The notes: generated by a model not told the origin, from the sequence alone. Positions 5,570-63,590 are shown, counted from the first letter of the stretch. The stretch is 64,000 bases of DNA from a marine bacterium AO1-C (GCA_001890965.1 MLAY01000008.1:488341-552340); one strand, 5' to 3'. Made by a program: numbers and translations.

Positions 5570-6799
5570 TTACTTTTTAGCTTGAGCTTGTTTCTTGGCC
5601 TTATTTACAGAAAACAACACAGGAATGGTAAGTTTTTGTCCAATGTGGGTACCTTCCATTTTAGCGGGTAACCAATTTACATTTACCGCTTTAATTGCCC
5701 GGATTGCCTCTTTGTCACAAGCTTCATCCAATCCCTTTAAAATTTTAAATTGAGTAAGAGACCCATCTGCTTTAATTTTAAAGTTTACGAATACACGTCC
5801 TTCAATGCCCTTACGTTGTGATTCGATTGGATAGCGAAGTTCTTTTGATAACTTTTTATAAAACAATCCTAACCCTCCTTCTATGCCAGCAAAACGATAG
5901 CTGCTATCGCTTTGTTTAACCGAAACTACTTTGGGTGAGCTATTAGAAAAAGCAAACAACATCATAGCCATTAGAGGTAGTAACAAGAAGATTTTCAAGA
6001 ACTTGTACCCAGGGCTACGCAGTTTTTCCATCATTGCCAAACGCTTCTTAATTTCTATTTGGTTAAAGTTATGGGTAAGCTGTAAATTCATTTGCTTAAA
6101 CAATGACTGTACTAGCAGCTTTCCATAATCCTTGGCAGAGGTTTCTTTCAAAACAGCCGCATCGGCAATAAACTCATGATGATATTTTAATGAACGATCA
6201 TATAAATAGATGATCGGATTGAACCACAATATAATTTTAATCACCTCCATATACATTACATCCCAACTATGAAAATCACGAATGTGGGTCAATTCATGGT
6301 TTATAATTTTAGTACGCTCATTGGGAGTAAGCTCTTTGGTGTTGTCCCAAAACAGGTAACGCATAAATGAGAAGGTGGGGAGGTTGCCTTGAGTATTGAT
6401 AAGCTTATAATCCAGACGAGTTTGTACATCACTATTGCGAATTATACGGATAAGCCTCATCATACGCCACGCAAAGCGAGCTATCATCAACAATGCCATT
6501 ACTATGTATACGATCAACAGCACAGTACCCATACTCCAGGTATTAGTTACTGTGGTTTCAAGAGTTTGCTCAACATTGGTGGCTCCTACTGATATAGTTT
6601 CCAACGTTACAGCAATCGTTTTGTCAGAAGTTGTGGGTGTGAGGTTAAACTCAAGCAAGGGAATCGTTATTGCCAAAAAAGATGACAACAATAAGTAAAA
6701 GCGATTCCGTTGAAAAAACGTATCATTTCTTAGAAAGAAAAAATACACTAAGTAAAATAAAATAAGACAAACCGACGACTCTATTAGATAATTGAACAT
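5570..6799 (-). CDS. BlaR1-like M56 peptidase fused to a TonB C-terminal domain (signal transducer)
   Basis: HExxH within HELTHIRDFHSWD (M56 signature), multiple transmembrane helices, and a C-terminal TonB-C-like domain (GIEGRVFVNFKIKADGSL...). Lies immediately downstream of the blaI-like gene. Confidence 0.8.
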   Translation of the reverse strand: MFNYLIESSVCLILFYLVYFFFLRNDTFFQRNRFYLLLSSFLAITIPLLEFNLTPTTSDKTIAVTLETISVGATNVEQTLETTVTNTWSMGTVLLIVYIVMALLMIARFAWRMMRLIRIIRNSDVQTRLDYKLINTQGNLPTFSFMRYLFWDNTKELTPNERTKIINHELTHIRDFHSWDVMYMEVIKIILWFNPIIYLYDRSLKYHHEFIADAAVLKETSAKDYGKLLVQSLFKQMNLQLTHNFNQIEIKKRLAMMEKLRSPGYKFLKIFLLLPLMAMMLFAFSNSSPKVVSVKQSDSSYRFAGIEGGLGLFYKKLSKELRYPIESQRKGIEGRVFVNFKIKADGSLTQFKILKGLDEACDKEAIRAIKAVNVNWLPAKMEGTHIGQKLTIPVLFSVNKAKKQAQAKK

Positions 6800-9863: not shown

Positions 9864-9973
9864 GATTGTCTTGAATAAATTATTTGAAATTCTCAAAGTA
9901 TCATTACAGATTTCAATAAATTATACCTGTAATAACAGATTATTTGATAGTAAAGAAAAGGGAATATGTTGAA

Positions 9974-10050
9974 AGGGCGTTGGACATATTGTGCAAATAC
10001 TTGGGCATATCATTCACCCAACATAAGTCACTCATAATCAAATACTTGCC
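9974..10050 (-). promoter_or_regulatory. Conserved ~77-bp element, copy A, with two TTGG(A/G)CATAT direct repeats 21 bp apart
   Basis: Aligns at about 80% identity with copy B (10839-10914). Half-sites sit at 9980-9989 and 10001-10010. On the minus strand it lies about 110 bp upstream of the 8931..9863 gene. Confidence 0.5.
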
Positions 10051-48620: not shown

Positions 48621-50849
48621 ATGAAGAAAATTTTACTAGCCTTGGCTTTGTGCCTGGGAGGGCTATACTATGGCCAGGCTCAAAACCAACGCACCCGTAT
48701 CGTAAAGATTAGTCGAACTACTATGGGTAACACAACCAAACAACTACAAAGCTACTTTGATCAAAACATGGCGCCATTTTATCACGGGGTAGCATCTGGA
48801 GATCCTTTGTCGGATCGGGTAATCCTGTGGACTCGGGTAACCCCTGATACGCACGGATCGATACAGGTAGTATGGCAAATTGCTACCGACCCAAAAATGC
48901 AAAATGTAGTAAACTCTGGTACCTTGACCACTGATGAAGCCAAGGACTACACCGTAAAAGTAGACGCTACTGGGTTACAGCCAGCTACTACTTATTACTA
49001 TCACTTTAGTGCTTTGGGTAAAAACTCTTTAGTGGGCCGCACCCGTACTGCGCCTACTACCAATGTAAGCAACTTACGTTTTGCAGTAGTGTCTTGTTCA
49101 AACTACCAAAACGGCTATTTCAACGCCTATGGTAACATTGCTGAACGTAACGACATTGATGCCGTAATTCACCTGGGAGACTATATTTATGAGTATGCTA
49201 CGGGCGAATTTGGTTACAGTGATGAGATTGGTCGTGGCCATCAGCCCAGCAATGAAATCATTACTTTGCAAGATTATCGTATCCGTTATTCTTACTATCG
49301 TCTAGACCCTAAACTGCGTCGTTTGCACCAGCAATTGCCTTTCGTAACAGTGTGGGATGACCACGAATTTGCTAATGATGCTTTTAAAAACGGCGCTGAA
49401 AATCACCAAAGCAACGAGGGAAGCTGGGACAAGCGCAAGAGCAATGCTTTTAAGGCTTATTTTGAGTGGATGCCAGTGCGTACCAATACTTTGCAAACCA
49501 ACCGCATTTACCGTAAAATTAGTTACGGAAACCTGGTAGACTTGATTATGCTAGATACACGTATCGAAGGCCGTGATGAACAAGCAGGTGGTGGTTTATT
49601 CAGAAAAAGTACTGCCAAGAAATTGGAAGCCCGTGCGCGTGAATTGGCTCGTAGTCGTACTACTGCGCAAGATAAGCTGACCACTTTGTTGCGTGAGTTT
49701 ATGCCTTATATGGTCAACATTAGCAACTCAAACGAGCGTAATGATAAGGCTTTGACCAAAGACGAGTTTGAATTTGTAATTGCCACTTTGGTAAAATGGG
49801 TAAAGGCTCGTAAAGAAAACGCTGAGATTAAAACCACTCCTGAATTTGCCCAATTAAGAAGCTTGTTGTTGAAGGCACAAAAGGATAATCCTAACCAGCA
49901 AGCACGTACCGCTGAAGAACGTAGCATGTTGGGTAAAACCCAATTGGCTTGGTTAAAACAACAATTGAGTAGCTCTAAAGCACAATGGAAGTTATTGGGT
50001 AATCAAGTCATGTTTTTCCCCTTCAACGGTATCGACATCAAAGATACCTGGGATGGTTATCAGGATGAGCGTGGCGAAATCATTGATTATGTAATGGATC
50101 GCAACATTAAAAATGTAGTAGTGCTTACTGGTGATATCCACACTACTTTTGCCGCTGATGTACCTACTTCGCAATGGGGGTATGCTTTCTTTGGTACACG
50201 TTATTCGGCAATGGTAGAGTTTGTTACACCTAGTGTGACTTCTTCTAACTTTGACGAGTTTGTAGACTTGGGCATTATTGGTGATTTTGCCAACTTCGTA
50301 GCCAGCGGTTTATTAGACGTACTCAACCCACACTTGAAAGAGCGCAACTTGAACGATCACGGCTATATGGTGATTGATGTAAATTCTTCTCGGGTACAGG
50401 CTGATTGGTACTATATGAATGACATCAAGACCAATAACAACAGCCAGCGGTATGGCCAAGGCTGGTATGTACGCAACAACCAACGCTATTTGCGTAAAGC
50501 AAACAGTGCAGCCCCTAATCGTAACTTATACGGCGCTTCAGCTCCTACTACGCCTTTGAACAAACGCATCACTAGCAGCAATGAACCTGCACTATTGGTA
50601 GTTGGTAATTATCCCAACCCTGCCAAAGTAGCAACCAACATACATTACGCTATTTCTCATGATAGTAAAGTGCAAATCTTGATTTACAACGAACAGGGTA
50701 AATTGATTAAGCAGGTAATGAACTTACCACAAGAGGCTGGTTTGTACAATGTAACGTTCGGGGTAAACGACCTTAAGAATGGCTACTACATCTACAAAGT
50801 AATCAGCAATGGGCACGAAGTAAGTCGTCGTTTGCTGATTCAGAAATAG
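48621..50849 (+). CDS. PhoD-like alkaline phosphatase with a T9SS C-terminal sorting domain
   Basis: Signal peptide. PhoD metallophosphatase motifs (VSCSNYQNGYFNAYG...VIHLGDYIYEY, WDDHEF, TGDIHT). The C-terminal ~80 aa match a por-secretion CTD (VQILIYNEQGKLI...YIYKVISNGHEVSRRLLI). Confidence 0.8.
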   Translation: MKKILLALALCLGGLYYGQAQNQRTRIVKISRTTMGNTTKQLQSYFDQNMAPFYHGVASGDPLSDRVILWTRVTPDTHGSIQVVWQIATDPKMQNVVNSGTLTTDEAKDYTVKVDATGLQPATTYYYHFSALGKNSLVGRTRTAPTTNVSNLRFAVVSCSNYQNGYFNAYGNIAERNDIDAVIHLGDYIYEYATGEFGYSDEIGRGHQPSNEIITLQDYRIRYSYYRLDPKLRRLHQQLPFVTVWDDHEFANDAFKNGAENHQSNEGSWDKRKSNAFKAYFEWMPVRTNTLQTNRIYRKISYGNLVDLIMLDTRIEGRDEQAGGGLFRKSTAKKLEARARELARSRTTAQDKLTTLLREFMPYMVNISNSNERNDKALTKDEFEFVIATLVKWVKARKENAEIKTTPEFAQLRSLLLKAQKDNPNQQARTAEERSMLGKTQLAWLKQQLSSSKAQWKLLGNQVMFFPFNGIDIKDTWDGYQDERGEIIDYVMDRNIKNVVVLTGDIHTTFAADVPTSQWGYAFFGTRYSAMVEFVTPSVTSSNFDEFVDLGIIGDFANFVASGLLDVLNPHLKERNLNDHGYMVIDVNSSRVQADWYYMNDIKTNNNSQRYGQGWYVRNNQRYLRKANSAAPNRNLYGASAPTTPLNKRITSSNEPALLVVGNYPNPAKVATNIHYAISHDSKVQILIYNEQGKLIKQVMNLPQEAGLYNVTFGVNDLKNGYYIYKVISNGHEVSRRLLIQK

Positions 50850-51111
50850 TTAAGATGTGTAAAGAAGTATTGATCAATCACTTATACTTAACCCTTTTAA
50901 ATAATAGTCTAACTAACCCATAACTTTTTCTCAATACAATTTGCATAGAATACCTGCTGGGAGTACCTGGTAGGTATTTTTGTTTATTGAATCATACCTA
51001 CAAATTTTAACTTTTCTCCTTCCTTACTTAGGGTCTCTCCTGCTTTCGTTGTCTAGAATTATAAGAAGCAGTATTGGCTTCAAAATCAAGCTTTTTAAAA
51101 ACCCAAAACAT

Positions 51112-51669
51112 ATGAGAAATCTTATTTTTTTATTCGTACTTGTGTGTACGACTAGTGTGATTCAAGCTCAAAACGAAAATATTTCTAAAGGTACCTGGAT
51201 GGCGGGAGGAAGCGTATCATTTTCTAACACGACCCAAACACTGGGCAACAACAGCACAACTAATACTAATTTTACCCTCGAACCTCAAGCAGGTTATTTT
51301 TTCTCTTCCCGATTTGCACTCACATTTGGAACCAGTTTTTCTACCAGCACTTTTGCAGCAGGACGTTCTAGTGGATTTTCTATACAACCTGGAGCTCGTT
51401 TTTATTTGCATAAAGGCTTTTTTGCCTCTGCACAAGTAGGAATTGGCCATGTAAAAACCTCCATTACCGATCCAGCGAGTAGCGATTATATCAATATCAT
51501 ATCGTTCGAGGGAGGAACTGGCTATAGCATATTTTTGAATAAGTATGTGGCCATTGAACCCGCCTTGGTATATCGTGTAACCAATTTTGACCAAAACGGA
51601 ACCAGTTCAAGTTTTACTGGCTCCAACCGAGAGTTTAATTTTAGTGTTGGCTTTAGAATATTTTTGTAA
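51112..51669 (+). CDS. Small outer-membrane beta-barrel protein, paralog 1 of 3
   Basis: Signal peptide and KGTWMAGGSVSFSN. Alternating beta-strand pattern with a C-terminal FNFSVGFRIFL. Start placed at the ATG at 51112. Confidence 0.6.
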   Translation: MRNLIFLFVLVCTTSVIQAQNENISKGTWMAGGSVSFSNTTQTLGNNSTTNTNFTLEPQAGYFFSSRFALTFGTSFSTSTFAAGRSSGFSIQPGARFYLHKGFFASAQVGIGHVKTSITDPASSDYINIISFEGGTGYSIFLNKYVAIEPALVYRVTNFDQNGTSSSFTGSNREFNFSVGFRIFL

Positions 51670-51983
51670 TACCTAACCAGAGACTGTCTTATAATTTTTT
51701 TTGTACTGAATATTACTTTGGTTTTCTCTATCAGGAAAAGATAAACTTCTCTCATCTCGCAGGCTTACTCAATCCTCCCCAAGTGTTGTTGCCCCTTTAG
51801 GAGGGAGTTGCTTCTGATTATGTAGAACTAAAAATCTTTCTAGAATAATATTTGGTAGTTGATTATTTATGAGACAGCCTCTTCATCCTTCCCTTAACAA
51901 TCCTCTTATCTTCCCTCCTTTTGGCTTCCACTTCCAATTCACTAATTTTGCCCGCAGTATCAAACGATTAAATTTTAATTATA

Positions 51984-52577
51984 ATGAAACAGGTTTTTGT
52001 ATTAGTGATCATCGCTTTTATTAGTATTCAGGCAAAAGCTCAAGATCAAAATCGTTTTAGTAAAGGGCAATGGTTTGTAGGTGGTGATTTTTCTTTTAGC
52101 AATAATTCTAGAAATCTGGGAGGATCAACAGGTAAATTTAAAACAAGTAACTTAAGTTTTTCGGGGGAAGTAGGGTACTTTGTCATACCCAAGCTAGCGG
52201 TTACGCTTACTCCCATATACGCTCGAAACAGTTCCGAAAATACGTCACAATTCAACCCTAATCGTAATGTTTACCGTGAATATAGCCTCAATGCTGGAAT
52301 AAGAGGTTATGTAATTCAAAACTTATTTCTATATGGTAGTATAGGGTGGGGAAAAGTAAAAGAGGTAATTGAAATACCAAATCTTCTTCCAATAACAATT
52401 GAAAGCACCCCAAATGTGTTTGTTTACAGTGCAGGGGTAGGATATAGTCTTTTTTTAATAAAAAAAGTATCACTTGAACCACGGGTATTTTATCGTTTTC
52501 GTCGAATTGGGGATGTTGATGCAGGAGCTGACAATAACTCATTTAATTTTAGTGTTGGCTTTAGAATATTTTTGTAA
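51984..52577 (+). CDS. Small outer-membrane beta-barrel protein, paralog 2 of 3
   Basis: KGQWFVGGDFSFSNN near the N-terminus and FNFSVGFRIFL at the C-terminus. Confidence 0.6.
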   Translation: MKQVFVLVIIAFISIQAKAQDQNRFSKGQWFVGGDFSFSNNSRNLGGSTGKFKTSNLSFSGEVGYFVIPKLAVTLTPIYARNSSENTSQFNPNRNVYREYSLNAGIRGYVIQNLFLYGSIGWGKVKEVIEIPNLLPITIESTPNVFVYSAGVGYSLFLIKKVSLEPRVFYRFRRIGDVDAGADNNSFNFSVGFRIFL

Positions 52578-52849
52578 CGCTTAATAAGTGAGGAAGATCC
52601 AAATCTTTCTCACTCATCCCACCTTTCGTGTCTTCGTTCTATTTAAGTTTCTCAGTCTTACCCTCTTCGTTTAGTCACAACCAACTCTACATTGGTCTAA
52701 AAAGACCGATATCTCCTATAATATGCCCAATTTCGCCTACTAAATCACCTCACTTTTTGAGATATTGCATTATGTAACTTGTCCTAAAATCATTGCTTTA
52801 GGTCATTACAATCATTCAAACACTTCAATACTCATTAAATATCTTTCTC

Positions 52850-53380
52850 ATGAAAAAAATCATTTTACCATTCATTTTATTATTAATTAGCTTTGGGATT
52901 CAGGCTCAAGATCAAACCACCAAAATCCGCAAAGGCACCTGGCTAATCGGCGGTGATCTTTCGTTTAGCACTTTTACTTTCCAGTATCCTTCTAATATGA
53001 GTAGTAGTCCCAATACCAGTACGGTGCTCACCCTAAATCCCCAGGCAGGTTATTTTATTGGTAATCGTATTGCTGTTGGTTTGGGTTTAAACTATTCTAC
53101 CAACCAAACTTTTGATACTTATGGTATACAAACTGGTGCTCGCTTTTATTTGATCAAACATCTATTTGCCGAAGGAATTATTGGGTTTGGAAAAAACGTT
53201 GCGCGAGAAGGTGATTTTCAGTCCGATACGTTTAGTTGGATAACAACGGTGGGCTACTCCGCTTTCTTAAACGAACATGTGGCCCTGGAGCCTCGCATTA
53301 TTTATCAGGAAAATCACTACTCATCTAATATCATAGGGAGAGGATTAACTATAGGAGTAGGGTTGAGGGTATTTTTATAA
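52850..53380 (+). CDS. Small outer-membrane beta-barrel protein, paralog 3 of 3
   Basis: KGTWLIGGDLSFST near the N-terminus and LTIGVGLRVFL at the C-terminus. Confidence 0.6.
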   Translation: MKKIILPFILLLISFGIQAQDQTTKIRKGTWLIGGDLSFSTFTFQYPSNMSSSPNTSTVLTLNPQAGYFIGNRIAVGLGLNYSTNQTFDTYGIQTGARFYLIKHLFAEGIIGFGKNVAREGDFQSDTFSWITTVGYSAFLNEHVALEPRIIYQENHYSSNIIGRGLTIGVGLRVFL

Positions 53381-54937: not shown

Positions 54938-56074
54938 TTAAGGAATTACTTCAAATACAATGAATTGATTGAGTTGTTGGCCAAATGCGCTAAAGTTGTT
55001 ATCGGCTACCAATACTAATGATTTATTACCATTGGGTAAATCAGCACCAAAGGCAATGCCTTCTATGTTGTCTACGACACGATCGGTACCTCCAGCAGCA
55101 GACAGTTGGGAACGAATATCCTCAAAATCAAATAGCAATGTTTTAGTAGCAGGGGTATAAGTAGCTCCTTTTAGGGCAGTCATAGAAGATACATCTGTAG
55201 CACTGCTGGCATCTACTTTATAAATGCGTACATTATTGCCGCCATCACTATATCCAGTAGCAAAAGAGCGCTCTAATACCAAAAACTTATTTTCGGCATA
55301 AGCCAGTACTTCTACCACCCCATTCACCATAAAATTACCACTACGTACTACTGGCCCCAATTCGTATACAAACTGGCGACCAAATTCTCCTGTGGCTTGG
55401 TCTACATAAGAAATACGAACGGGTGATTGAGTAGTGGTTCCAAAAGTTGGGGCATCGCCATCTTGAATCAAGGGCAGTTCCATAGCTACCCAATAGCCTT
55501 TATTGTCTATGCTATGCGAAATACCTTCAAAAGTACCATTGTTGCGAGGCCCTTGGTCGGCTTGAGTAGTTGCCTGAAATAGCGAGGGAACAGTGTATTC
55601 TTTGACAAATTGCCCATTGGCAGAAGCTTCACGAATAAATGGATTAACCCCTCTACCATCTACATAACCTTCGCTTGTCCAGATAATGTTTCCCGAAGAA
55701 GGAATCAACCTGATGGCCTCTGGATCGGCTTGGTCATTGGAAAAAGGATTCCCGTTTTTGTCTAAAAGTTCTACCTGACTTAGGATTTCGACTTTAGAAA
55801 AACTGCTTTGGTCAAAAGTGAGTTGGGCAGTATAGTAGCGAATAGGAGCGGCAGGTGCATCGCTAATCAGGTAATATACACCATTGGCATAATCGATACT
55901 GGATAAACCACCTACTACTGTACCATTGAAGGTTGTATTGTCAGGAATAACCTGTTCGCCAATAAAATTGAGGCTGGTAATACTTACCTCAGAAACCTGA
56001 TCGTTGCTGTCTTTTTTACAAGCCGTAAACAAAGACAACACCATTGCTAGCATGATAATGTTTAAATACTTCAT
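54938..56074 (-). CDS. Hypothetical lipoprotein (beta-rich, possibly propeller-like)
   Basis: Lipobox LFTACKK. Repetitive, beta-rich sequence. Confidence 0.4.
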   Translation of the reverse strand: MKYLNIIMLAMVLSLFTACKKDSNDQVSEVSITSLNFIGEQVIPDNTTFNGTVVGGLSSIDYANGVYYLISDAPAAPIRYYTAQLTFDQSSFSKVEILSQVELLDKNGNPFSNDQADPEAIRLIPSSGNIIWTSEGYVDGRGVNPFIREASANGQFVKEYTVPSLFQATTQADQGPRNNGTFEGISHSIDNKGYWVAMELPLIQDGDAPTFGTTTQSPVRISYVDQATGEFGRQFVYELGPVVRSGNFMVNGVVEVLAYAENKFLVLERSFATGYSDGGNNVRIYKVDASSATDVSSMTALKGATYTPATKTLLFDFEDIRSQLSAAGGTDRVVDNIEGIAFGADLPNGNKSLVLVADNNFSAFGQQLNQFIVFEVIP

Positions 56075-56284
56075 TTTGTGATTAATAGCTTAGTAATGTT
56101 GTTTTAAATGAAGCACAAAGAAATGCTAAAATTCCTGCATTGCTTTTACCAATACATTAAGTAATGGTCAAGCAAATGTTTCATATGTAGGTGACATAAA
56201 AAAATAGGTGACGCGAAAACACGCGCCCCTATTCAAGTGAGCTTACTCGAAGCTTACATTTCACACACAACACAATTGTTATTT

Positions 56285-57589
56285 TTAATAAAGTTCATCA
56301 TTAAGCTGAAGCTTCAACTTTTGGGCTGAAGCCCAAGCCTTGATCACCTTCATCTCTTTTTCGGAGGGCATGCGGTTATAGGCCCCTCGAGCTTGCACCA
56401 CTCGATGATCATCTAGTACCTCAATAGTGATGATCTTGGTAGTGGGGCGAAACAAGTCTTGCTTTACCAGACTCCAGATTGAGCAATACCCCGAAGTACA
56501 TCGGTTGAGATAAGAAGACACACAATGACTCATCTGTCGTCCTTCTTCAAACAATGACTGACTATCAGTGATTTGTCGAATCGTATACCATTGCAATGAG
56601 CGTCGTTTGGCAAAATAATGGAACTCGTCCATGGTAGAATAGTTCCAATGAACCACCGCCTGACCATATTGCTCCATCACTCGCTGGTACTGCTGAGCAT
56701 CGTTTAGCCAACGGTGCCATTCTCCAATCATGCGCATCAATGAACCATAAGTTCGCCCCTTTAGGCTAAACTCAGTAGTGCGGGTTTTCTGGCGTACCAA
56801 CTCCCCTGCTTCGTTGAGTTGCAAAGGGGTTTCGTATCGCTGGGCTACGGTAAAGTCTACCAATGGCCCCACCTGGTGATTCTCCAAAAAATCCGGGTGG
56901 TTGATCAAAAATTGAATCAACTCTAGCCAAAACGCTGTATCCTGGGTAACTTGATCCAACTTGGCTACCATTAGCGCTTTAAACAACGCCATACTACCTC
57001 CCAAAGCGATGATTTGCCCATAATACAATGCCTGATAAACACTGTATTCCACAGGAGACTCCAAAAAATGATGCGCCATTTTTTTGGTTAAGCTCACAGG
57101 TAAATCCTTGGCCTTACGGATGTTATGTCCGTTGACCAAATGTAGGTACCATTCTATGGTTTGCTTATTCCCGGTTTTCCAGGCTTGATTCATAAACATA
57201 GGTACCGAATAATGGCCAAACAGGAACTGTAGTAAATCTTTCAACAAAAAATTAGACGCCTCTCGCCAACTTGCCCCTCGGGGGAGTTCTATAGTAGGTT
57301 CCCAGTCTTTAGGATCACGAATCCAGTATTTGGCATAACGATATGCATTCGACAAAGCAGTACCTCGATAATAAATCTGGTAGGCATTGTCTCGAGCAAT
57401 GTCTTTGACAAACTGGTAAAACTCTTTTTGATCGCAACGACGGCGATGCCACCAGGTAGTTTGCAGCAATTCGGCAATGTTTTTAAAATCATTGGGACGA
57501 TTGCTGATGGCTACTTTACGATGGCTCAAATCATACAAAATGGTCTCAAGTTGAGCCCGGGTATAAGCACGTTGTTTTTGTTTTGTCAT
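56285..57589 (-). CDS. Uncharacterised protein, member 1 of a four-gene tandem paralog family (conserved W.RDPK.W.P, FM.QAW, YGQ..A.GGS and M.HCV..Y...C..G..SIW blocks)
   Basis: Aligns along its length with 57953..59491, 59754..61019 and 61456..62805. Shared blocks: WIRDPKDWEP, FMNQAWKTGNKQTIEWYLHLVNGHNIRKAKDLP, YGQIIALGGS and QMSHCVSSYLNRCTSGYCSIWSL. Confidence 0.6.
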   Translation of the reverse strand: MTKQKQRAYTRAQLETILYDLSHRKVAISNRPNDFKNIAELLQTTWWHRRRCDQKEFYQFVKDIARDNAYQIYYRGTALSNAYRYAKYWIRDPKDWEPTIELPRGASWREASNFLLKDLLQFLFGHYSVPMFMNQAWKTGNKQTIEWYLHLVNGHNIRKAKDLPVSLTKKMAHHFLESPVEYSVYQALYYGQIIALGGSMALFKALMVAKLDQVTQDTAFWLELIQFLINHPDFLENHQVGPLVDFTVAQRYETPLQLNEAGELVRQKTRTTEFSLKGRTYGSLMRMIGEWHRWLNDAQQYQRVMEQYGQAVVHWNYSTMDEFHYFAKRRSLQWYTIRQITDSQSLFEEGRQMSHCVSSYLNRCTSGYCSIWSLVKQDLFRPTTKIITIEVLDDHRVVQARGAYNRMPSEKEMKVIKAWASAQKLKLQLNDELY

Positions 57590-57609
57590 GATTATAATCC
57601 AGCTTTGAT

Positions 57610-57650
57610 CCGCCAGATTATAACCATCTTATGAGGTCAGAATCTGGCGG
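57610..57650 (-). promoter_or_regulatory. Perfect 10-bp inverted repeat (ccgccagatt...aatctggcgg, 21-nt spacer) 20-60 nt upstream of the start codon of paralog 1
   Basis: Seen directly in the sequence. Also a GATTATAA(T/C)C direct repeat at 57590-57600 and 57616-57626. Confidence 0.35.
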
Positions 57651-57952
57651 GGTAAAACATTGATGCTTGGGTAATTTGCATGAGTAGTTCATTCAAATTA
57701 CCATTGGCGCCTTCACCTTCAGCATCAGGTTTTGTTTCTTGTTTTTGTTTTCTTTTGCTCAATTTTATTTTTCGTTTTAATTACTGATAGTCAATCTTTT
57801 AGCATTTATTTGATTATCATATTTCAAACTTACTCACTCACTACGCAAGCTTTTTGCGCAGCAAATAATTTTTCTAAAAATTTTCATCTCAGCAAAGGAT
57901 TCTAAACTATCGCCTTGCGCTCATTTTTCACTTTTCATTTTTAGTTTTTCAC

Positions 57953-59491
57953 TTAAGAATAGTCAATAGACAAATCCAGGTTTTCTTGCTTACTCCAATG
58001 TTGAATAATTGATAATTCGCTGTCAGTAGGTTCGCGATTTTGCTTACCTTTTACTGTCCATATTTTGTCCTCATTGCCCAGCTCTATAGTCACGCATTTT
58101 TCTTCTCGACCATCATAAAAAATCCGACTCATGGCCCAAATAGAACTAGTTCCTTCCTGGCATTTATAAGCGTAACCTCCCACACAATGCGACATTACTT
58201 TGCCTTCCAACCATAGCTCATAGTTGTTGATCAGCTGAATGATGCGATAACGTGGCAAAAACGGCAAAGGCTGGTATTCAAAATCCTGCTTTTTACGTGT
58301 TTCCCAGCTTGTCAAATTAGCCTTGAACTCATCGCCCAAAATATTCAATGCATCGTGCCAATCATTAACTACCTTCATCAATGACTTTGGAGTACGCTTT
58401 TGAAGCGTAAAGTCAGGTTCCAAAGCAGTTTCTTTTCTAATACCACCTTCTCGGGTGTACACTCGCTGCCCATAGTATTTGCGCGCATTGATAAAGTTGA
58501 CAATTCGTGGCAACTCTCCCTGATCTACCAATTCGGGATAACGCATCAGGAAATGCACCAACTGAGCAAAAAAATCAGGATCGCGTTGGATCCGTTTTAC
58601 CGAACATTTATATAGTTCGTCGCTCAAAGCTACACTGCCTCCCAACCCTCGAACTTGCCCATATAACAAAGCCTGATTGATGGCGTAATAGCTAGGAGCC
58701 TTGGTAAAATAATGCGTCATTTTAGTGGTCAGTTTGGCTGGAACCGACTTTACCCGACGAAGGTTGTGTCCTTTGGCCAGAAAAATGAACCACAAAATAT
58801 GCTGATGATCATTTGTATCCCAGGCCTTATGCATAAAGGCTGGTACAGAATATTTTACAAACAAATGATTAATCAACTCTTTTATTAATTGAGGATGTAC
58901 TTTGCCCCAACTTACTTCTTGAGCTGCATCCCAATGAATGCTTGGTTTCCAATCTTCAGGATTACGTAGCCAATGCCTCCGATATTTGAACAACACATAC
59001 AAAATATTGTGTTGGTATAAAACTGGCACATTGCCAGGACGCAGTATATCTTTTAGAAAATAGAAAAACTGTTGTTTTTGATGTCCAGGAAGCCATTGGG
59101 TAGTTTGTAACATTTTACCAATATTCTGAAACATCGGCGAAAGCTCATGATACTTTACTTCATTTAAATACAATGCATGTAAAATATCGATTGCCCGAGA
59201 GTACCCTTCGTAAGACAATTGGCGACGCTGTCCTCTTTTTTTGCCTTGCTTCCGAAGTTGCCCTTTCTTTTCCGCGTTGGTCTTCCCTACCGTTTTTCTA
59301 TATGCTCTTTGTTTATTTCTTCTCGAATTCCTTGAGTAATTACGACTAGCCATGATTACCAAATTGGGAGCAAGCCAGGATGACTCACTCCATTGAAGAG
59401 GTAATGATGTTGAATAAAGTATTCGACGTATCTGTATGATCATTGAATCACCCAATATGCAGATATGGCCGAAAACCGCTCCCTTACCCAA
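57953..59491 (-). CDS. Uncharacterised protein, member 2 of the four-gene paralog family (longer, highly basic N-terminus)
   Basis: WLRNPEDWKPS, FMHKAWDTNDHQHILWFIFLAKGHNLRRVKSVP, YGQVRGLGGS and VMSHCVGGYAYKCQEGTSSIWAM. The N-terminal ~100 aa are Arg/Lys-rich. Confidence 0.6.
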   Translation of the reverse strand: MGKGAVFGHICILGDSMIIQIRRILYSTSLPLQWSESSWLAPNLVIMASRNYSRNSRRNKQRAYRKTVGKTNAEKKGQLRKQGKKRGQRRQLSYEGYSRAIDILHALYLNEVKYHELSPMFQNIGKMLQTTQWLPGHQKQQFFYFLKDILRPGNVPVLYQHNILYVLFKYRRHWLRNPEDWKPSIHWDAAQEVSWGKVHPQLIKELINHLFVKYSVPAFMHKAWDTNDHQHILWFIFLAKGHNLRRVKSVPAKLTTKMTHYFTKAPSYYAINQALLYGQVRGLGGSVALSDELYKCSVKRIQRDPDFFAQLVHFLMRYPELVDQGELPRIVNFINARKYYGQRVYTREGGIRKETALEPDFTLQKRTPKSLMKVVNDWHDALNILGDEFKANLTSWETRKKQDFEYQPLPFLPRYRIIQLINNYELWLEGKVMSHCVGGYAYKCQEGTSSIWAMSRIFYDGREEKCVTIELGNEDKIWTVKGKQNREPTDSELSIIQHWSKQENLDLSIDYS

Positions 59492-59723
59492 TTTAGCTTA
59501 CCTCTTTGGCTCCATCAGGAAGGGAGGAGATTGGTATCTTTTCGCCTGAAACACATACCATCTTCTGAGCCTTGAACAATTTGGTTTAGCATTCTTTTAT
59601 TGAATTATAAATTGTTAATGATGAATTATTAATTAGTGTGTATTTGTAATGCGATGTTAAAAACCTACCATCTTTGGTTATGATTTCGTGTCTCTAAAAT
59701 CGCGTTGCAAACACTCGTATAAA

Positions 59724-59750
59724 GTAGCACGCATTTACATGCGTGCTAGT
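59724..59750 (-). terminator. Hairpin immediately after the stop codon of paralog 3 (tagcacgcat-ttac-atgcgtgcta)
   Basis: Perfect 10-bp stem with a 4-nt loop starting 4 nt below the stop codon. On the minus strand it is followed by a U-rich stretch (uacuuuauac). Confidence 0.5.
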
Positions 59751-59753
59751 CAT

Positions 59754-61019
59754 TTATTCTAGTTCGCAGTAATTGGCTACTTTTAGCCTTTCACGCTTTG
59801 CCCATTGACGAACGATTTTGCTTTCGTCTACTCCAGGCATACTGTTCGCCTTACCCCGTACCTGTACAATGGTTTCGCCCTCATGCAACTGAATTGTCAA
59901 TAATGGCTTTACACCGTTACAGGTGGTAGCAGTCAGCGACCAAATAGATGTATCGCCCGATTCACAACGATGCAAGTAAGAACCTACACAGTGTCGCATT
60001 ACTTCTCCCTCACGCTCAATCGCATAGTTGTTGGTCAACTGCATAATGCGATAAATCGGTGATTTTTGATCGGCTTTATTGGCTCGATACAAAAAGTTAC
60101 GCACCTTGTTGGGAGTCCAGGTAACCAATTTTCCCGCACTTATTCCATAGCGATTACTATTTTCCCAATCTTTGACCTCACGCATTAACGACTTGGCAGT
60201 TTTACCTTTTAGGCTAACTTTTCGAGTCACTTGTGGCCCTAGTTGCCCATAGGCATCTATTTGTACCTTCACCAACCTGCGATCGTTCAAATAATTCACA
60301 ATGCGATCTACTTGTTGGTCTTCTTCCAGTTCAGGATTATTGATGAACAATCTCAATAGTGTCAACCACATTTCCTGATCCTGACACAAGTAACTTGTGG
60401 AAAGCAAGCTCAGCTTTTTTACCAGCGATTTTCGCCCTCCCATGGCCATTACTTGCCCATATATTAAGGCATCTTCAATGCGGTACTCAGTCGGAGCTTG
60501 CAAGAATTCATGCGCCATCTTTTTTGTCAAATGTGCCTGCATTCCTGGAGCTGTTCTTATGTTTTGGCCTTGTGCCAAGTGAATAAACCAACTGATATGT
60601 AGTGGGTCTATATCTTGCCACGCCTGATACATAAATTGTGGTACTTCGTAGCGAACAAATAAGTAGTCTATCAGATCTTGTTGCAAAATTTCCCCAGCAT
60701 TACCAATGCTTTTTGGCATCCAGCCTTTAGGAGACTTTAGCCAATGCTTGGTTTGACCATATATGGCCAACAAAGCCTCCCCCTGGTAAAATACCCGATA
60801 GTAATGACGACGAGCTATGGCACTTAAAAATTCATAAAACCCACGTTTGTCGCCTGGACGATCTTTCCATTCGCCTCGCATCAGCTTTCCTACTTTGTAG
60901 TAAGGAGAAAAGCTATCTAACCGATTCAATTTCAGCTTCTTGCGGTAAAGCGCCTCTAATGTTTTTCGAGGGCGACTCAAATCCGCTTTTTTAATTTGAG
61001 AACCCATAATTCTTACCAT
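59754..61019 (-). CDS. Uncharacterised protein, member 3 of the four-gene paralog family
   Basis: WLKSPKGWMPK, FMYQAWQDIDPLHISWFIHLAQGQNIRTAPGM, YGQVMAMGGR and VMRHCVGSYLHRCESGDTSIWSL. Confidence 0.6.
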   Translation of the reverse strand: MVRIMGSQIKKADLSRPRKTLEALYRKKLKLNRLDSFSPYYKVGKLMRGEWKDRPGDKRGFYEFLSAIARRHYYRVFYQGEALLAIYGQTKHWLKSPKGWMPKSIGNAGEILQQDLIDYLFVRYEVPQFMYQAWQDIDPLHISWFIHLAQGQNIRTAPGMQAHLTKKMAHEFLQAPTEYRIEDALIYGQVMAMGGRKSLVKKLSLLSTSYLCQDQEMWLTLLRLFINNPELEEDQQVDRIVNYLNDRRLVKVQIDAYGQLGPQVTRKVSLKGKTAKSLMREVKDWENSNRYGISAGKLVTWTPNKVRNFLYRANKADQKSPIYRIMQLTNNYAIEREGEVMRHCVGSYLHRCESGDTSIWSLTATTCNGVKPLLTIQLHEGETIVQVRGKANSMPGVDESKIVRQWAKRERLKVANYCELE

Positions 61020-61455
61020 TTTGAATGCGGCAAGGAACCTTTCAGGGTAAATGGTCAGGGGTTAATGATGAATTTCCTGAACAGTATTTATCCAATCAAA
61101 GCCATTGCTTGGTAAGTATCTGGGATACTCAAACCTCGCCGCGATTAAGAAGTATTGTTATTCATTTTGAAATTTATGTTGTACCCCTCAGGGGGTATGC
61201 CTGCATCACCTCGTGAGTCAGACTTGTTTTGTTTAAATAATTTGATGTTGGTCATGTATATTTTTGATTTTAAGTGCTTTCAATAAATATGGCTAAATGG
61301 TTTCATTGTTCTATGGTCTCGTGATGCATTGCAGTACCATATCACTACTTCATAATAAAATATGAATTATCTTGAACTACTCATTAGCCATATCTAAAGC
61401 ACTGATTAATAACAATTTTAAACTTTATCGTAAACTCTGAACTACTGACTACCTA

Positions 61456-62805
61456 CTAGTAGTCGTCGTCCAAAGTAAGCTGCTCGGCATCCATCCAAAT
61501 GCCGATAATGTCTAGTATTTCTTGAGAAGGCGGCTCGTTGTTTTTGGCTTTGACTTGCAAAACCAGATGATCGGTCATGCCTACCTCAATGGTTACCAAC
61601 CGCTTGGGCTTATGGTATTGTCGCGATTTCAACGTCATCATAAAAATGGAGCTGTCACCCTCGATGCATTCTTCCACATAAGTAGCCACACAGTGATTCA
61701 TCGCTTTGCCTTCTTCTTTCAGCTCAAAGTTGGATACCAACTGAGTAATACTGTAGGTTTCCAAACGCCCCCCTCGTTGGGTAACGTGCTTAAAGTCTCG
61801 AATTGGAACCGCTCTCCATTGGATGAATTCGTCTTCTCCCAGTTTGTTGAGCAATTCACGCTCTCGATCCAATTCCTCCTGCCATTTTTCCACTGACTTG
61901 TTCAGCGAATCCATCGTACGCCCCTTGATCCTCAATTGAGGTTTGGGCGGTGGCAACATTTCCCATTTACCTTCTCGATTTCGGGTACGACGCGGAAGAA
62001 ATTTTTGGTGATAGATGTACTCTACTACCTTGTTCATATCTTCAGCTTCGAACCCTTTATTTTCGGTAAAAAATTGTAAAACTGTAGACCAGAAATCCTT
62101 GTGTTCCAGCATTCTGGCTACCGAAGTTACATCCAAGTCATCTACCAGCTGTTCGGTTCCTCCCATTCCCATAATTTGCGCATAACGCAATGCCTTTTGG
62201 ATGGTATAATCCTCAGGCGCTATCGTAAAATAGTGCGCCATTCTTTTGGTAAGTTCAATAGGCAAACCAGGGGCAGTACGAATGTTCAGCCCACTTCCCA
62301 AATGGATAAACCAGCGAATGTATCGTTCGTTGAGTTCATCCCAGGCCTGATTCATGAACTTAGGCACCGGAAACTTTGCAAACAAGTAGTGAATGAGGTC
62401 CAGTGCCAATTCTTCGCTATCGCAAGTGTTTTCATCTGGCATCCACCCTTTGGGGTCACGTGCCCATTGTGGCGCATAGTGAAAAACGTAGCGTAGCGTT
62501 TTGGCTTCCTCGTACACCAAAGTGTAATCTTTACGGGCAATGTCTTTCAAAAACTGACTAAATCCTTCTCGTTTGCCTCGGGTGTAGTGCCACTTATTTT
62601 GTAAAACCTCCCCTACTTCCCGGAAATGAGAGTACTGAGGTAGCTCTTTTACCGGAACCTTTCTGCGAAACAAGGCTTCTATCATTTTAGAAGGCTTGCG
62701 ATGTAACTTTTCAATTTTGGCTTCTCTTTGCTCCTTTCGGAGTCTTTTTTCTTGTGCGGCTTGTTCGGCCTCGTAGTGTCGTAGTGTTGTGCGAATATTA
62801 GCCAT
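61456..62805 (-). CDS. Uncharacterised protein, member 4 of the four-gene paralog family
   Basis: WARDPKGWMPD, FMNQAWDELNERYIRWFIHLGSGLNIRTAPGL, YAQIMGMGGT and AMNHCVATYVEECIEGDSSIFMM. Confidence 0.6.
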   Translation of the reverse strand: MANIRTTLRHYEAEQAAQEKRLRKEQREAKIEKLHRKPSKMIEALFRRKVPVKELPQYSHFREVGEVLQNKWHYTRGKREGFSQFLKDIARKDYTLVYEEAKTLRYVFHYAPQWARDPKGWMPDENTCDSEELALDLIHYLFAKFPVPKFMNQAWDELNERYIRWFIHLGSGLNIRTAPGLPIELTKRMAHYFTIAPEDYTIQKALRYAQIMGMGGTEQLVDDLDVTSVARMLEHKDFWSTVLQFFTENKGFEAEDMNKVVEYIYHQKFLPRRTRNREGKWEMLPPPKPQLRIKGRTMDSLNKSVEKWQEELDRERELLNKLGEDEFIQWRAVPIRDFKHVTQRGGRLETYSITQLVSNFELKEEGKAMNHCVATYVEECIEGDSSIFMMTLKSRQYHKPKRLVTIEVGMTDHLVLQVKAKNNEPPSQEILDIIGIWMDAEQLTLDDDY

Positions 62806-63131
62806 TGTGATGCTTCATTGGGAGATGGGTTTACTTTTTACTCACTTCATGGAAAATTTTCCCATCTCCCGAAAATTTTCACGAAGTACCTAAAGAGGGC
62901 GTCACATCTGACTGACTACCGTAGCAGCAGACAACAAGGGAATACTTATTCGTATAACTACGAATAAAATAATCCTGCTCGTTCGCTGGGCCTTTTTGCC
63001 CGCTTTGCGCCGAACAGGTCTCGGCGTTGCCATGAATCATAAAATATTTGTGTTTTTAAAGGGTATTTGTTTGGGAAGCAGCAACCATTGTTACCGCGTT
63101 TTTCACCCAGAAAATTAGGGGTAGGCAAAAA

Positions 63132-63590
63132 CTATTTGCTCTTGCCTATTTTTTGCAATTGAGCAAGCATGATGTCTTGTTCCCGTTCCATATTCGCGAG
63201 CAAGTGATCTTTCAATAAGGTCACCATTTCTTCGAATGATTGTCTGCGGGTAAATTTCTCAACTACTTGCTTGGTATGGGCATCTATCAACAAGATAAAC
63301 CCCGTACCCGCGTGCTTTTTCACGCTACGCTCTACGCCAAGGGCGGTTGTGAGTAGATCGGATTGGTACTGAGAGGTTCGGTTGGTGAAGTTTAAATCCA
63401 CAAATAAAACTTCTCGGCCGTCAAAGCGATTTTTCAAGTCATTGAAAACGGGTACCATCACTTTACTCGCTGCACACCAGTCAGCGTGTCGTTTTACAAC
63501 TAATAATCTGGCAGCAAATCTAGGCTTGCTAGGTTTTTTCACCACACTAGTTTGCTGAGGCTTTTTAGAGGTGGTAAATAGACTAAACAT
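63132..63590 (-). CDS. Hypothetical protein, possibly thioredoxin-like fold
   Basis: HADWCAASK resembles a WCxxC/S redox motif context. Otherwise unassigned. Confidence 0.3.
   Translation of the reverse strand: MFSLFTTSKKPQQTSVVKKPSKPRFAARLLVVKRHADWCAASKVMVPVFNDLKNRFDGREVLFVDLNFTNRTSQYQSDLLTTALGVERSVKKHAGTGFILLIDAHTKQVVEKFTRRQSFEEMVTLLKDHLLANMEREQDIMLAQLQKIGKSK

Follow-up and report, generated by a model that had tools for sequence, protein, structure and literature searches.

The 64,000-nt stretch of the genome of marine bacterium AO1-C studied here (the window) carries on its minus strand four intact open reading frames (ORFs), found by ORF calling and arranged head-to-tail, whose products share a C-terminal PcfJ-like domain. 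We designate them g1 to g4 in the order of their transcription. The gene transcribed first, g1 (61456..62805), encodes a protein of 449 aa (OJJ18846.1, BKI52_25070) and is followed by g2 (59754..61019), an ORF of 421 aa whose alternative start at Met5 gives 417 aa, as in the cluster representative P0099, which is at zero distance from g2. Then come g3 (57953..59353; OJJ18844.1), encoding 466 aa when read from the ATG at 59353, and g4 (56285..57589; OJJ18843.1, BKI52_25055), the last gene of the array, whose 434-aa product was chosen for modelling. The entries for g1, g3 and g4 in the NCBI record of marine bacterium AO1-C all read 'hypothetical protein'. The spacers between the genes measure 436, 400 and 363 bp, the second shrinking to 262 bp if g3 is read from a TTG further upstream, which agrees with the 260-440 bp per spacer reported in the initial annotation of this DNA.

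The four proteins can be aligned with one another over their whole length, as the initial annotation had stated: BLASTP E-values of 1e-70 to 1e-84 are far beyond chance, and the identity is as low as had been noted (32-36% pairwise over 413-464 columns). The same four PcfJ genes are found in the same order in two metagenome assemblies (L001 and L002) and in a Microscillaceae metagenome-assembled genome (MAG; L009), and g2-g4 are present on the truncated contig of a Cytophagaceae MAG (L010). The common layout consists of a thioredoxin-like gene, PcfJ genes of ~450, 415, 465 and 431 aa, then a phytase-like and/or an SDR gene. An identity matrix of the window, L001 and L002 resolves four ortholog groups, one per position, with 66-73% identity within the group for g1, 53-58% for g2, 41-68% for g3 and 60-71% for g4, against 29-38% between groups. 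The genes are true, old and strongly diverged paralogs, as had been proposed. The g1 orthologs of L009, L002 and L001 are 89, 73 and 66% identical to the window copy, while the corresponding values over four loci are 81/74/58/52% for g2, 90/85/68/43% for g3 and 83/79/72/60% for g4; among the array copies, g1 evolves slowest and g3 fastest. Where dS was computable (NG86), dN/dS between orthologs was 0.07-0.12, values that are rough because dS is saturated. Relative to L009, the PcfJ paralogs are 81-90% identical and the flanking thioredoxin-like, phytase-like and SDR genes 93-97%.

The only repeats in the region 56000-63200 are paralogous coding blocks of 60-79% identity, which rules out recent duplication, recent gene conversion and pairs of template and variable repeats (TR/VR) of the type used by diversity-generating retroelements (DGRs). 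Recent segmental duplication, which the initial annotation had itself raised as an alternative, is thereby excluded. A neighbour-joining tree of 136 family members groups the array genes in a single clade, with moderate bootstrap support (129/200). Our copy-number survey was small, covering 5 array loci (window included) and 14 loci of more distant homologs; each of these 14 loci (L004-L008, L011-L012, L015-L017, L020-L023) carries a single PcfJ copy, as judged from a scan with a hidden Markov model (HMM) or from called genes and Pfam. The array is thus an old, syntenically fixed tandem expansion under purifying selection, not DIVERSIFYING, and apparently confined to one lineage, the Microscillaceae-type marine Bacteroidota.

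The start of g3 deserves comment. An ORF of 512 aa opens at the TTG at 59491, but this form is probably over-extended and the ATG at 59353 is likely the true start, judging from the sequences compared: the orthologs are 465-470 aa long, NCBI annotates 466 aa (OJJ18844.1), and the TTG falls within a stretch of nucleotides that other genomes preserve, though not its reading frame, which is broken in L001. The highly basic N-terminal extension that the initial annotation ascribed to this gene therefore stands in part: the tail is very basic even from ATG 59353, with 19 Lys and Arg residues among the first 60, while its length was probably overestimated. The N-termini of g2-g4 are rich in Lys and Arg and the pI of these proteins is 9.3-9.7. 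No transmembrane or signal segment was detected in g1-g4.

The initial annotation had put forward a PcfJ-like domain as a hypothesis, and a Pfam search confirmed it for all four genes. The whole-protein scores with PF14284 (PcfJ-like) are 51.4 bits for g1, 47.4 for g2, 37.8 for g3 and 54.3 for g4, all of which exceed the gathering threshold of 25 bits. The matches span only the last 80-115 residues of each protein, namely residues 344-429 of g1 (61519-61776), residues 319-395 of g2 (59835-60065), the segment encoded by 58019-58270 in g3 and residues 299-413 of g4. From 45 homologs we then constructed an HMM and searched with it 1.84 billion cluster representatives (50%-identity clusters). Of the 19,379 proteins that matched at E<=1e-3, 3,087 did so at E<=1e-30. 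The 150 top-ranking ones span most of the profile, indicating that the ~300 N-terminal residues left unannotated by Pfam belong to a large conserved full-length architecture. The products of g1-g4 match this HMM end to end, from positions 1-25 to 424-427 of 427 (E 1e-120 to 1e-153), and carry the N-domain invariants of the full-length subfamily (W89, W96, P130, F132, G154 and H173; residue numbers throughout are those of g4). The array genes are bona fide members of the full-length PcfJ-domain family, and this family identity is secure. The full-length subfamily to which they belong is composed of a family-specific, all-helical N-domain of ~250 aa, a variable linker and a C-terminal PcfJ core of ~110 aa.

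PcfJ-domain proteins are widespread: many chromosomes encode them, as do conjugative plasmids and large phages of Bacillus, Clostridioides and Listeria. We retrieved the domain from 16 plasmid and 75 phage records. The plasmids come from Clostridioides, Enterococcus, Xanthomonas and Burkholderia and the phages include Bacillus Tsamsa-like, Clostridioides and Brevibacillus phages, among others. Almost all of these matches are confined to residues ~280-430 and do not share the N-domain, the sole full-length match in the plasmid and phage collections being in a 595-kb uncultured phage. On the Enterococcus conjugative plasmid pY3-2, the PcfJ gene lies in the transfer region encoding a type IV secretion system (T4SS), near an ArdC-like gene, and on the Xanthomonas plasmid p3191.2 it adjoins DotA/TraY. 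Structural matches of the array protein in BFVD are likewise phage 'PcfJ-like' proteins. PcfJ has been listed as a mobilome gene (PMC10782964) and reported as a domain in a DGR target of bacteria of the candidate phyla radiation (CPR) (PMC5758913).

The family is uncharacterised, as the initial annotation had held. Searches of NCBIfam, PADLOC and PDB sequences gave no match, the PHROG matches are all of 'unknown function', and the searchable literature holds passing mentions of PcfJ-domain proteins only, with no functional study. PDB sequence and profile searches, the latter with alignments of 4 and of 136 sequences, revealed no solved structure for the family; the profile matches to Csm6 and ferritin (E 0.24-0.29) concern the variable linker only and are at chance level.

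All the motif blocks listed in the initial annotation proved invariant across g1-g4. In the N-terminal part these are W89..P93..W96.P98, F132-M133..A136-W137, W147..L151..G154.N156.R158 and Y190.Q192....G197-G198, and near the C-terminus M353.H355-C356-V357..Y360...C364..G367..S370-I371. The last forms part of a signature block, E349-G-x-x-M-x-H355-C356-V-x-x-Y360-x-x-x-C364-x-x-G-x-x-S-I371 (56477..56545, minus strand), which lies between predicted helices α1 and α2 and is invariant in all 19 array genes, that is, in the array copies of the window, L001, L002, L009 and L010. These 19 genes all keep 46 invariant columns, family-wide invariants included, only 4 columns are fixed differently in three or more ortholog groups, and the alignment shows no hypervariable segment within any ortholog group. 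Across the 136 family members, E349, C356, T388 and N405 are found in every sequence, H355, V357 and Y360 in 134, C364 in 133, Q399 in 130 and E390 in 127. Of the N-domain residues, G154 occurs without exception, F132 in 135 sequences and H173 and P130 in 134 each. We also considered a protein tyrosine phosphatase loop (H-C-x5-R) and rejected it, the Arg position being R, K, R and E in the four copies. A four-ligand zinc site including H292 was weakened, since H292 is Gln or Glu in g1 and g2 and thus not conserved.

AlphaFold2, run with a 45-sequence alignment, produced a model of g4 with a predicted local distance difference test score (pLDDT) of 88.4 and a predicted template modelling score (pTM) of 0.74. 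It comprises the all-helical N-domain (~10-250), for which no convincing structural neighbour was found, a linker of lower confidence (~255-280), two helices and an α/β core at residues 323-427 (56309..56623, minus strand). DSSP assigns to this core the order β(333-340)-α(343-353)-α(360-366)-β(369-378)-β(384-392)-β(396-401)-α(410-422)-β(426-427). The complete fold of the GCN5-related N-acetyltransferases (GNATs) is β1-α1-α2-β2-β3-β4-α3-β5-α4-β6(-β7), with motif A, Q/R-x-x-G-x-G/A, in the β4-α3 loop. The order of the modelled PcfJ core corresponds to the β1-α1-α2-β2-β3-β4-α3-β5 part, so that a GNAT-like fold is a supported prediction; the chain ends after β5, and α4-β6-β7 are absent from the model. 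In the same model the invariant polar residues are predicted to occupy places that line the active-site cleft in GNATs, with E349, H355-C356 and Y360 in the α1-α2 region, T388 and E390 on β3 and Q399 on β4, and the basic loop (R/K)-G-K-x-N405 is predicted to lie at the position that binds the CoA pyrophosphate in GNATs.

Blocks conserved between genomes were found in three of the four upstream spacers, those of g1, g3 and g4, all on the minus strand. The g1 leader contains a 53-nt block (62834..62886) with GAAAATTTTC twice, 20 nt apart, conserved in the window, L002 and L001. Upstream of g3 there are two conserved non-coding blocks (59576-59593 and 59471-59512), the second of which overlaps the spurious TTG start. 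The block upstream of g4 (57825..57861) includes a Bacteroidota -7-like element, TAAGTTTG, ~243 nt before the ATG, with TAAATTTG at the equivalent position in L002. This element is a candidate g4 promoter on the basis of its sequence; the Bacteroidota -7 motif TAnnTTTG occurs upstream of g4 only, and a sigma-70 promoter scan did no better than shuffled sequences (19 sites against 16.4 expected). Since three of the four spacers hold such blocks, independent expression of each gene, as the initial annotation had suggested, appears plausible. The distant single-copy homologs have upstream gaps of 130-370 bp and no recurrent operon partner, which fits monocistronic genes.

The g4 leader also carries the inverted repeat that had been noticed before the gene, CCCGCCAGAT-N22-ATCTGGCGG (57610..57651, minus strand), 21-62 nt upstream of the ATG. 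Its minimum free energy is -26.9 kcal/mol (z -6.1) in the window. The stem-loop is kept in L009 (about 9940-9980; z -5.3), L002 (about 5855-5887; z -4.4) and L001 (about 9942-9980; z -2.9) and is weakened in L010; in L001 the stem shows two compensatory pair changes, from CCGCCAGAT/ATCTGGCGG to CCACCTGAT/ATCAGGTGG. No T run follows the stem, which points to a leader RNA structure or a palindromic operator and not to a terminator. An Rfam search of 54-64 kb returned a sub-threshold miRNA match only and no match for the stem-loop. The hairpin reported after g2 is equally real, being a perfect 10-bp palindrome located directly after the stop codon (59725..59748), terminator-like and without a strong T run. 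None of the four orthologous loci contains it, and we rejected it as a conserved element for that reason. A consensus scan alone detected, ~58 nt beyond the stop codon of g4, a terminator-like hairpin with a T-rich tail (56210..56227, minus strand), which by its sequence is the probable end of array transcription.

A domain scan of the ORFs at 30.7-56 kb and 63.1-63.6 kb of the window identified as neighbours thioredoxin-like, phytase-like, SDR, PhoD, GMC oxidoreductase, pyruvate kinase, FabF and RNase III proteins and three outer-membrane protein β-barrels. The array neighbourhood is housekeeping core chromosome. No integrase, relaxase, T4SS, phage, reverse transcriptase, toxin or secretion gene was found among these neighbours and no tRNA in the window, the GC content of the array matches that of its surroundings, and PADLOC-DB gave only a chance-level PDC-S14 match for g1 (E 0.021, 12.5 bits). 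The thioredoxin-like gene (63132..63590, minus strand) encodes 152 aa with a single-Cys WCAAS motif and scores 23.6 bits in Pfam, where the cut-off is 23.5. It stands immediately upstream of the array at all loci that extend to this position. Its counterparts in L009 (4041-4496), L001 (4407-4865) and L002 (137-592) are 97, 84 and 79% identical to it, a conservation well above that of the PcfJ genes, and the loci of distant single-copy homologs have no such neighbour. A functional link between this protein and the invariant PcfJ Cys is conceivable.

Two further features of the window lie outside the array. An 857-aa ORF (30714-33287, minus strand) matches the Major Vault Protein shoulder (PF11978, E 5e-31) and vault repeat (PF17795, E 3e-9). 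Major Vault Protein is a eukaryotic protein, and bacterial homologs are uncommon. A second set of tandem paralogs (50980-53380, plus strand) consists of three small outer-membrane β-barrel genes, which all match PF13505 and encode 229, 197 and 176 aa. They lie close downstream of the gene for a PhoD phosphatase with a C-terminal sorting domain of the type IX secretion system (48621-50849).

The loci of the more distant homologs showed associations of their own. In a 418-aa subfamily, a PF04308 'RNaseH_like' gene always immediately precedes the PcfJ gene (L005 9391-11257, L006 9365-11257, L015 5366-7257), and the pair is embedded in variable islands with WYL regulators, AAA/STAND NTPases, RlaP, DUF6169, DUF4276 and RtcB; the two genes may together form a module of a mobile or defence island. 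In a 483-aa subfamily (L004, L017), one and the same ABC sugar transporter always precedes the PcfJ gene, and the DNA just downstream of the latter is variable (L004 11855-18186 compared with L017 7550-8251), with a 1102-aa N6/N4 methylase and a 1003-aa ResIII/DEAD helicase in L004 and PIN fragments in L017. This suggests an insertion hotspot beside the PcfJ gene. SF0329 (PF25753), itself uncharacterised, is an extra N-terminal domain in P0051, P0069, P0082, P0095 and P0117 and at L013 2626-4395, while the 968-aa P0049 consists of a truncated copy without PcfJ core fused to a complete copy.

Taken together, we read the locus as an old four-copy PcfJ array whose proteins have a GNAT-like core and act as subfunctionalised, separately regulated cytoplasmic enzymes, and we give this reading as a whole about an even chance of being correct. 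Each paralog would be a soluble cytoplasmic enzyme in which Cys356, together with His355 and Glu349, carries out group transfer or hydrolysis. Target choice would fall to the conserved N-domain and the basic N-terminal tails, which may recognise a nucleic acid or a protein bound to one, and the four copies, transcribed from separate conserved leaders, would have become subfunctionalised, acting on different targets or as partners of one another. That the proteins are soluble enzymes is suggested by the lack of transmembrane or signal segments, the basic pI and the basic N-terminal tails; we have low confidence in this, as in a catalytic or ligand-binding role of Cys356 and in subfunctionalised copies. 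Four ancient paralogs sharply define the functional core, which comprises G154, H173, E349, H355, C356, Y360, T388 and N405. A GNAT-like fold with an invariant Cys offers a structural lead that, if true, would point to PcfJ proteins acting as enzymes in the biology of plasmids and phages.

Several observations weigh against this reading. No Acetyltransf_* family of Pfam matches g1-g4 at E<=1, and the PDB profile searches returned no acetyltransferase at all. Spatial clustering of the invariant residues and an approach of the N-domain residue H173 to them are putative, and H355, C356 and C364 could equally be metal ligands. At the loci examined, no conserved gene neighbour or fusion partner points to a substrate. 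As for the history of the array, the dN/dS estimates are rough owing to the saturation of dS, the tree supports the monophyly of the four paralogs only moderately, and the mean distance between paralogs (1.38) is close to that separating them from the nearest outgroups (1.40-1.48).

A more specific version would make PcfJ a hitherto unnoticed, C-terminally truncated GNAT-like catalytic module in which an invariant Cys-His(-Glu) centre replaces the canonical general base, and which bacteria have domesticated. The candidate chemistry would then be that of a thioester (ping-pong) acyl/aminoacyl transferase or a de-acylase, acting on nucleic acids or on DNA/RNA-bound proteins. Plasmids and phages would use the module during entry, and the array would comprise four isoenzymes that co-evolved, or the subunits of a hetero-oligomer, each under its own regulatory leader. 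This version is speculative and we regard it as quite unlikely; if it is true, a family of about 19,000 sequence clusters would acquire a function.

The conserved His and Cys residues also allow a non-enzymatic interpretation, in which H355, C356 and C364, with H173 or H292, hold a structural metal, DNA or RNA is bound through the basic tails and the helical N-domain, and the paralogs are regulators or subunits of one hetero-oligomer. The near-invariance of these residues, the pI of 9.3-9.7 and the Lys/Arg-rich N-termini are all compatible with such zinc proteins. The conserved upstream inverted repeats and leader blocks could be autoregulatory operators, and the fusion in P0049 hints at self-association. 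C364 is, however, missing from some bona fide PcfJ domains (Ile in Enterococcus pY3-2; 3 of 136 family members), and its dispensability in some plasmid domains argues against an obligatory Cys/His zinc site. In addition, H292 is lost in g1 and g2, adjacent His and Cys residues rarely ligate the same metal, no helix-turn-helix or zinc-finger family was matched in Pfam, and the invariant E349, Y360, T388 and N405 with the conserved Q399 look less like a zinc site with four ligands than like a pocket for catalysis or ligand binding. We therefore consider this interpretation possible but unlikely.

Two further explanations are contradicted by synteny, selection and genomic context. The initial annotation had likened the array to diversifying immunity, defence or effector families, in which sequence diversification itself would be selected, as in polymorphic toxin-immunity systems, DGR targets or defence islands. 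It is true that mobile elements commonly carry the domain (16 plasmid and 75 phage records; PMC10782964), that it is found in a CPR DGR target (PMC5758913), that some distant single-copy homologs (L004, L005/L006/L015) reside in variable, defence-island-like regions, and that the PcfJ paralogs evolve somewhat faster than the flanking genes. But the analogy does not fit an array of constant copy number and order with 1:1 orthologs in five assemblies, a dN/dS of 0.07-0.12 and housekeeping flanks, in which every copy keeps the catalytic-type and family-invariant residues and no ortholog group has a hypervariable region. Nor were secretion, toxin, reverse transcriptase or integrase genes found in the scanned 30.7-64 kb, a tRNA in the window, TR/VR repeats at 56000-63200, a PADLOC match, or, for the toxin-immunity variant, any such domain in Pfam or any signal or transmembrane segment in g1-g4; this origin is improbable. 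We hold it to be very improbable that the genes are passengers left from, or carried by, an integrated conjugative element or prophage, with a pCF10-type role of PcfJ in DNA transfer or establishment. The family does take its Pfam name from the pCF10 protein, the pY3-2 and Xanthomonas plasmid genes sit in the T4SS region near an ArdC-like gene and beside DotA/TraY, respectively, and the full-length architecture occurs in the 595-kb uncultured phage. Yet plasmid and phage proteins have in common with the array only the C-terminal ~100-150 aa and not the N-domain, no integrase, relaxase, T4SS or phage gene was detected among the ORFs scanned at 30.7-64 kb and no tRNA in the window, the GC content matches the surroundings, and a scan of viral contigs yielded no relative. 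Synteny extends to genomes whose array proteins are only 43-66% identical (window compared with L001), and other full-length subfamilies are stable chromosomal single genes, for instance after the same ABC transporter in L004, L017, L020 and L021. The full-length subfamily thus behaves as ordinary chromosomal genes under purifying selection and is not just mobile-element cargo.

The array can finally be compared with the systems it resembles. PF14284 is named after PcfJ of the Enterococcus faecalis plasmid pCF10, where pcfJ belongs to the conjugative transfer region, whereas the array has no such context, with no T4SS, relaxase or integrase among the scanned neighbours. Alignment with the pY3-2 and p3191.2 proteins shows that plasmid PcfJ proteins share the E-G-x-x-M-x-H-C-V-x-x-Y core and the (R/K)-G-K-x-(N/D) loop, but that of Enterococcus pY3-2 differs in having Ile at the position of C364 and Asp at that of N405. 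Plasmid and phage PcfJ proteins moreover have unrelated N-terminal parts and are encoded by single genes, in contrast to the fixed four-gene array. The phage families PHROG 3169, 8470, 7484 and 9653 resemble the array in the C-terminal 80-110 residues (E 1e-9 to 5e-19), but these proteins are 340-900 aa long with other N-terminal regions, so that only the C-terminal domain is common to both. With GNATs such as PA3270 (1yre), HAT1 (1bob), RimL (1s7f) and RimJ (6c30), the PcfJ core shows a resemblance of fold and not demonstrated membership. The β4-α3 loop, Q399-x-(R/K)-G402-K-x-N405, corresponds to the first half of motif A only (Q in 130/136 and the first G in 104/136, the final G/A position being variable), and canonical GNATs have no counterpart of the conserved His-Cys/Glu/Tyr set and no detectable sequence similarity. 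The full-length subfamily (for example P0013, P0026, P0045, and P0023, 'MAG: PcfJ domain-containing protein [Bacteroidota bacterium]') has the same architecture end to end, the same invariants (W89, W96, P130, F132, G154, H173, E349, H355, C356, Y360, T388 and N405) and likewise apparently monocistronic genes with long upstream spacers. Unlike the array, its members sampled outside Microscillaceae are single-copy, and some relatives carry the N-terminal SF0329 domain or pair with a PF04308 RNaseH-like gene, neither of which is found in the array. The array genes are therefore further members of a known domain-of-unknown-function family and not a novel kind of system, to which the fixed four-paralog arrangement and the predicted GNAT-like core add modestly new leads.

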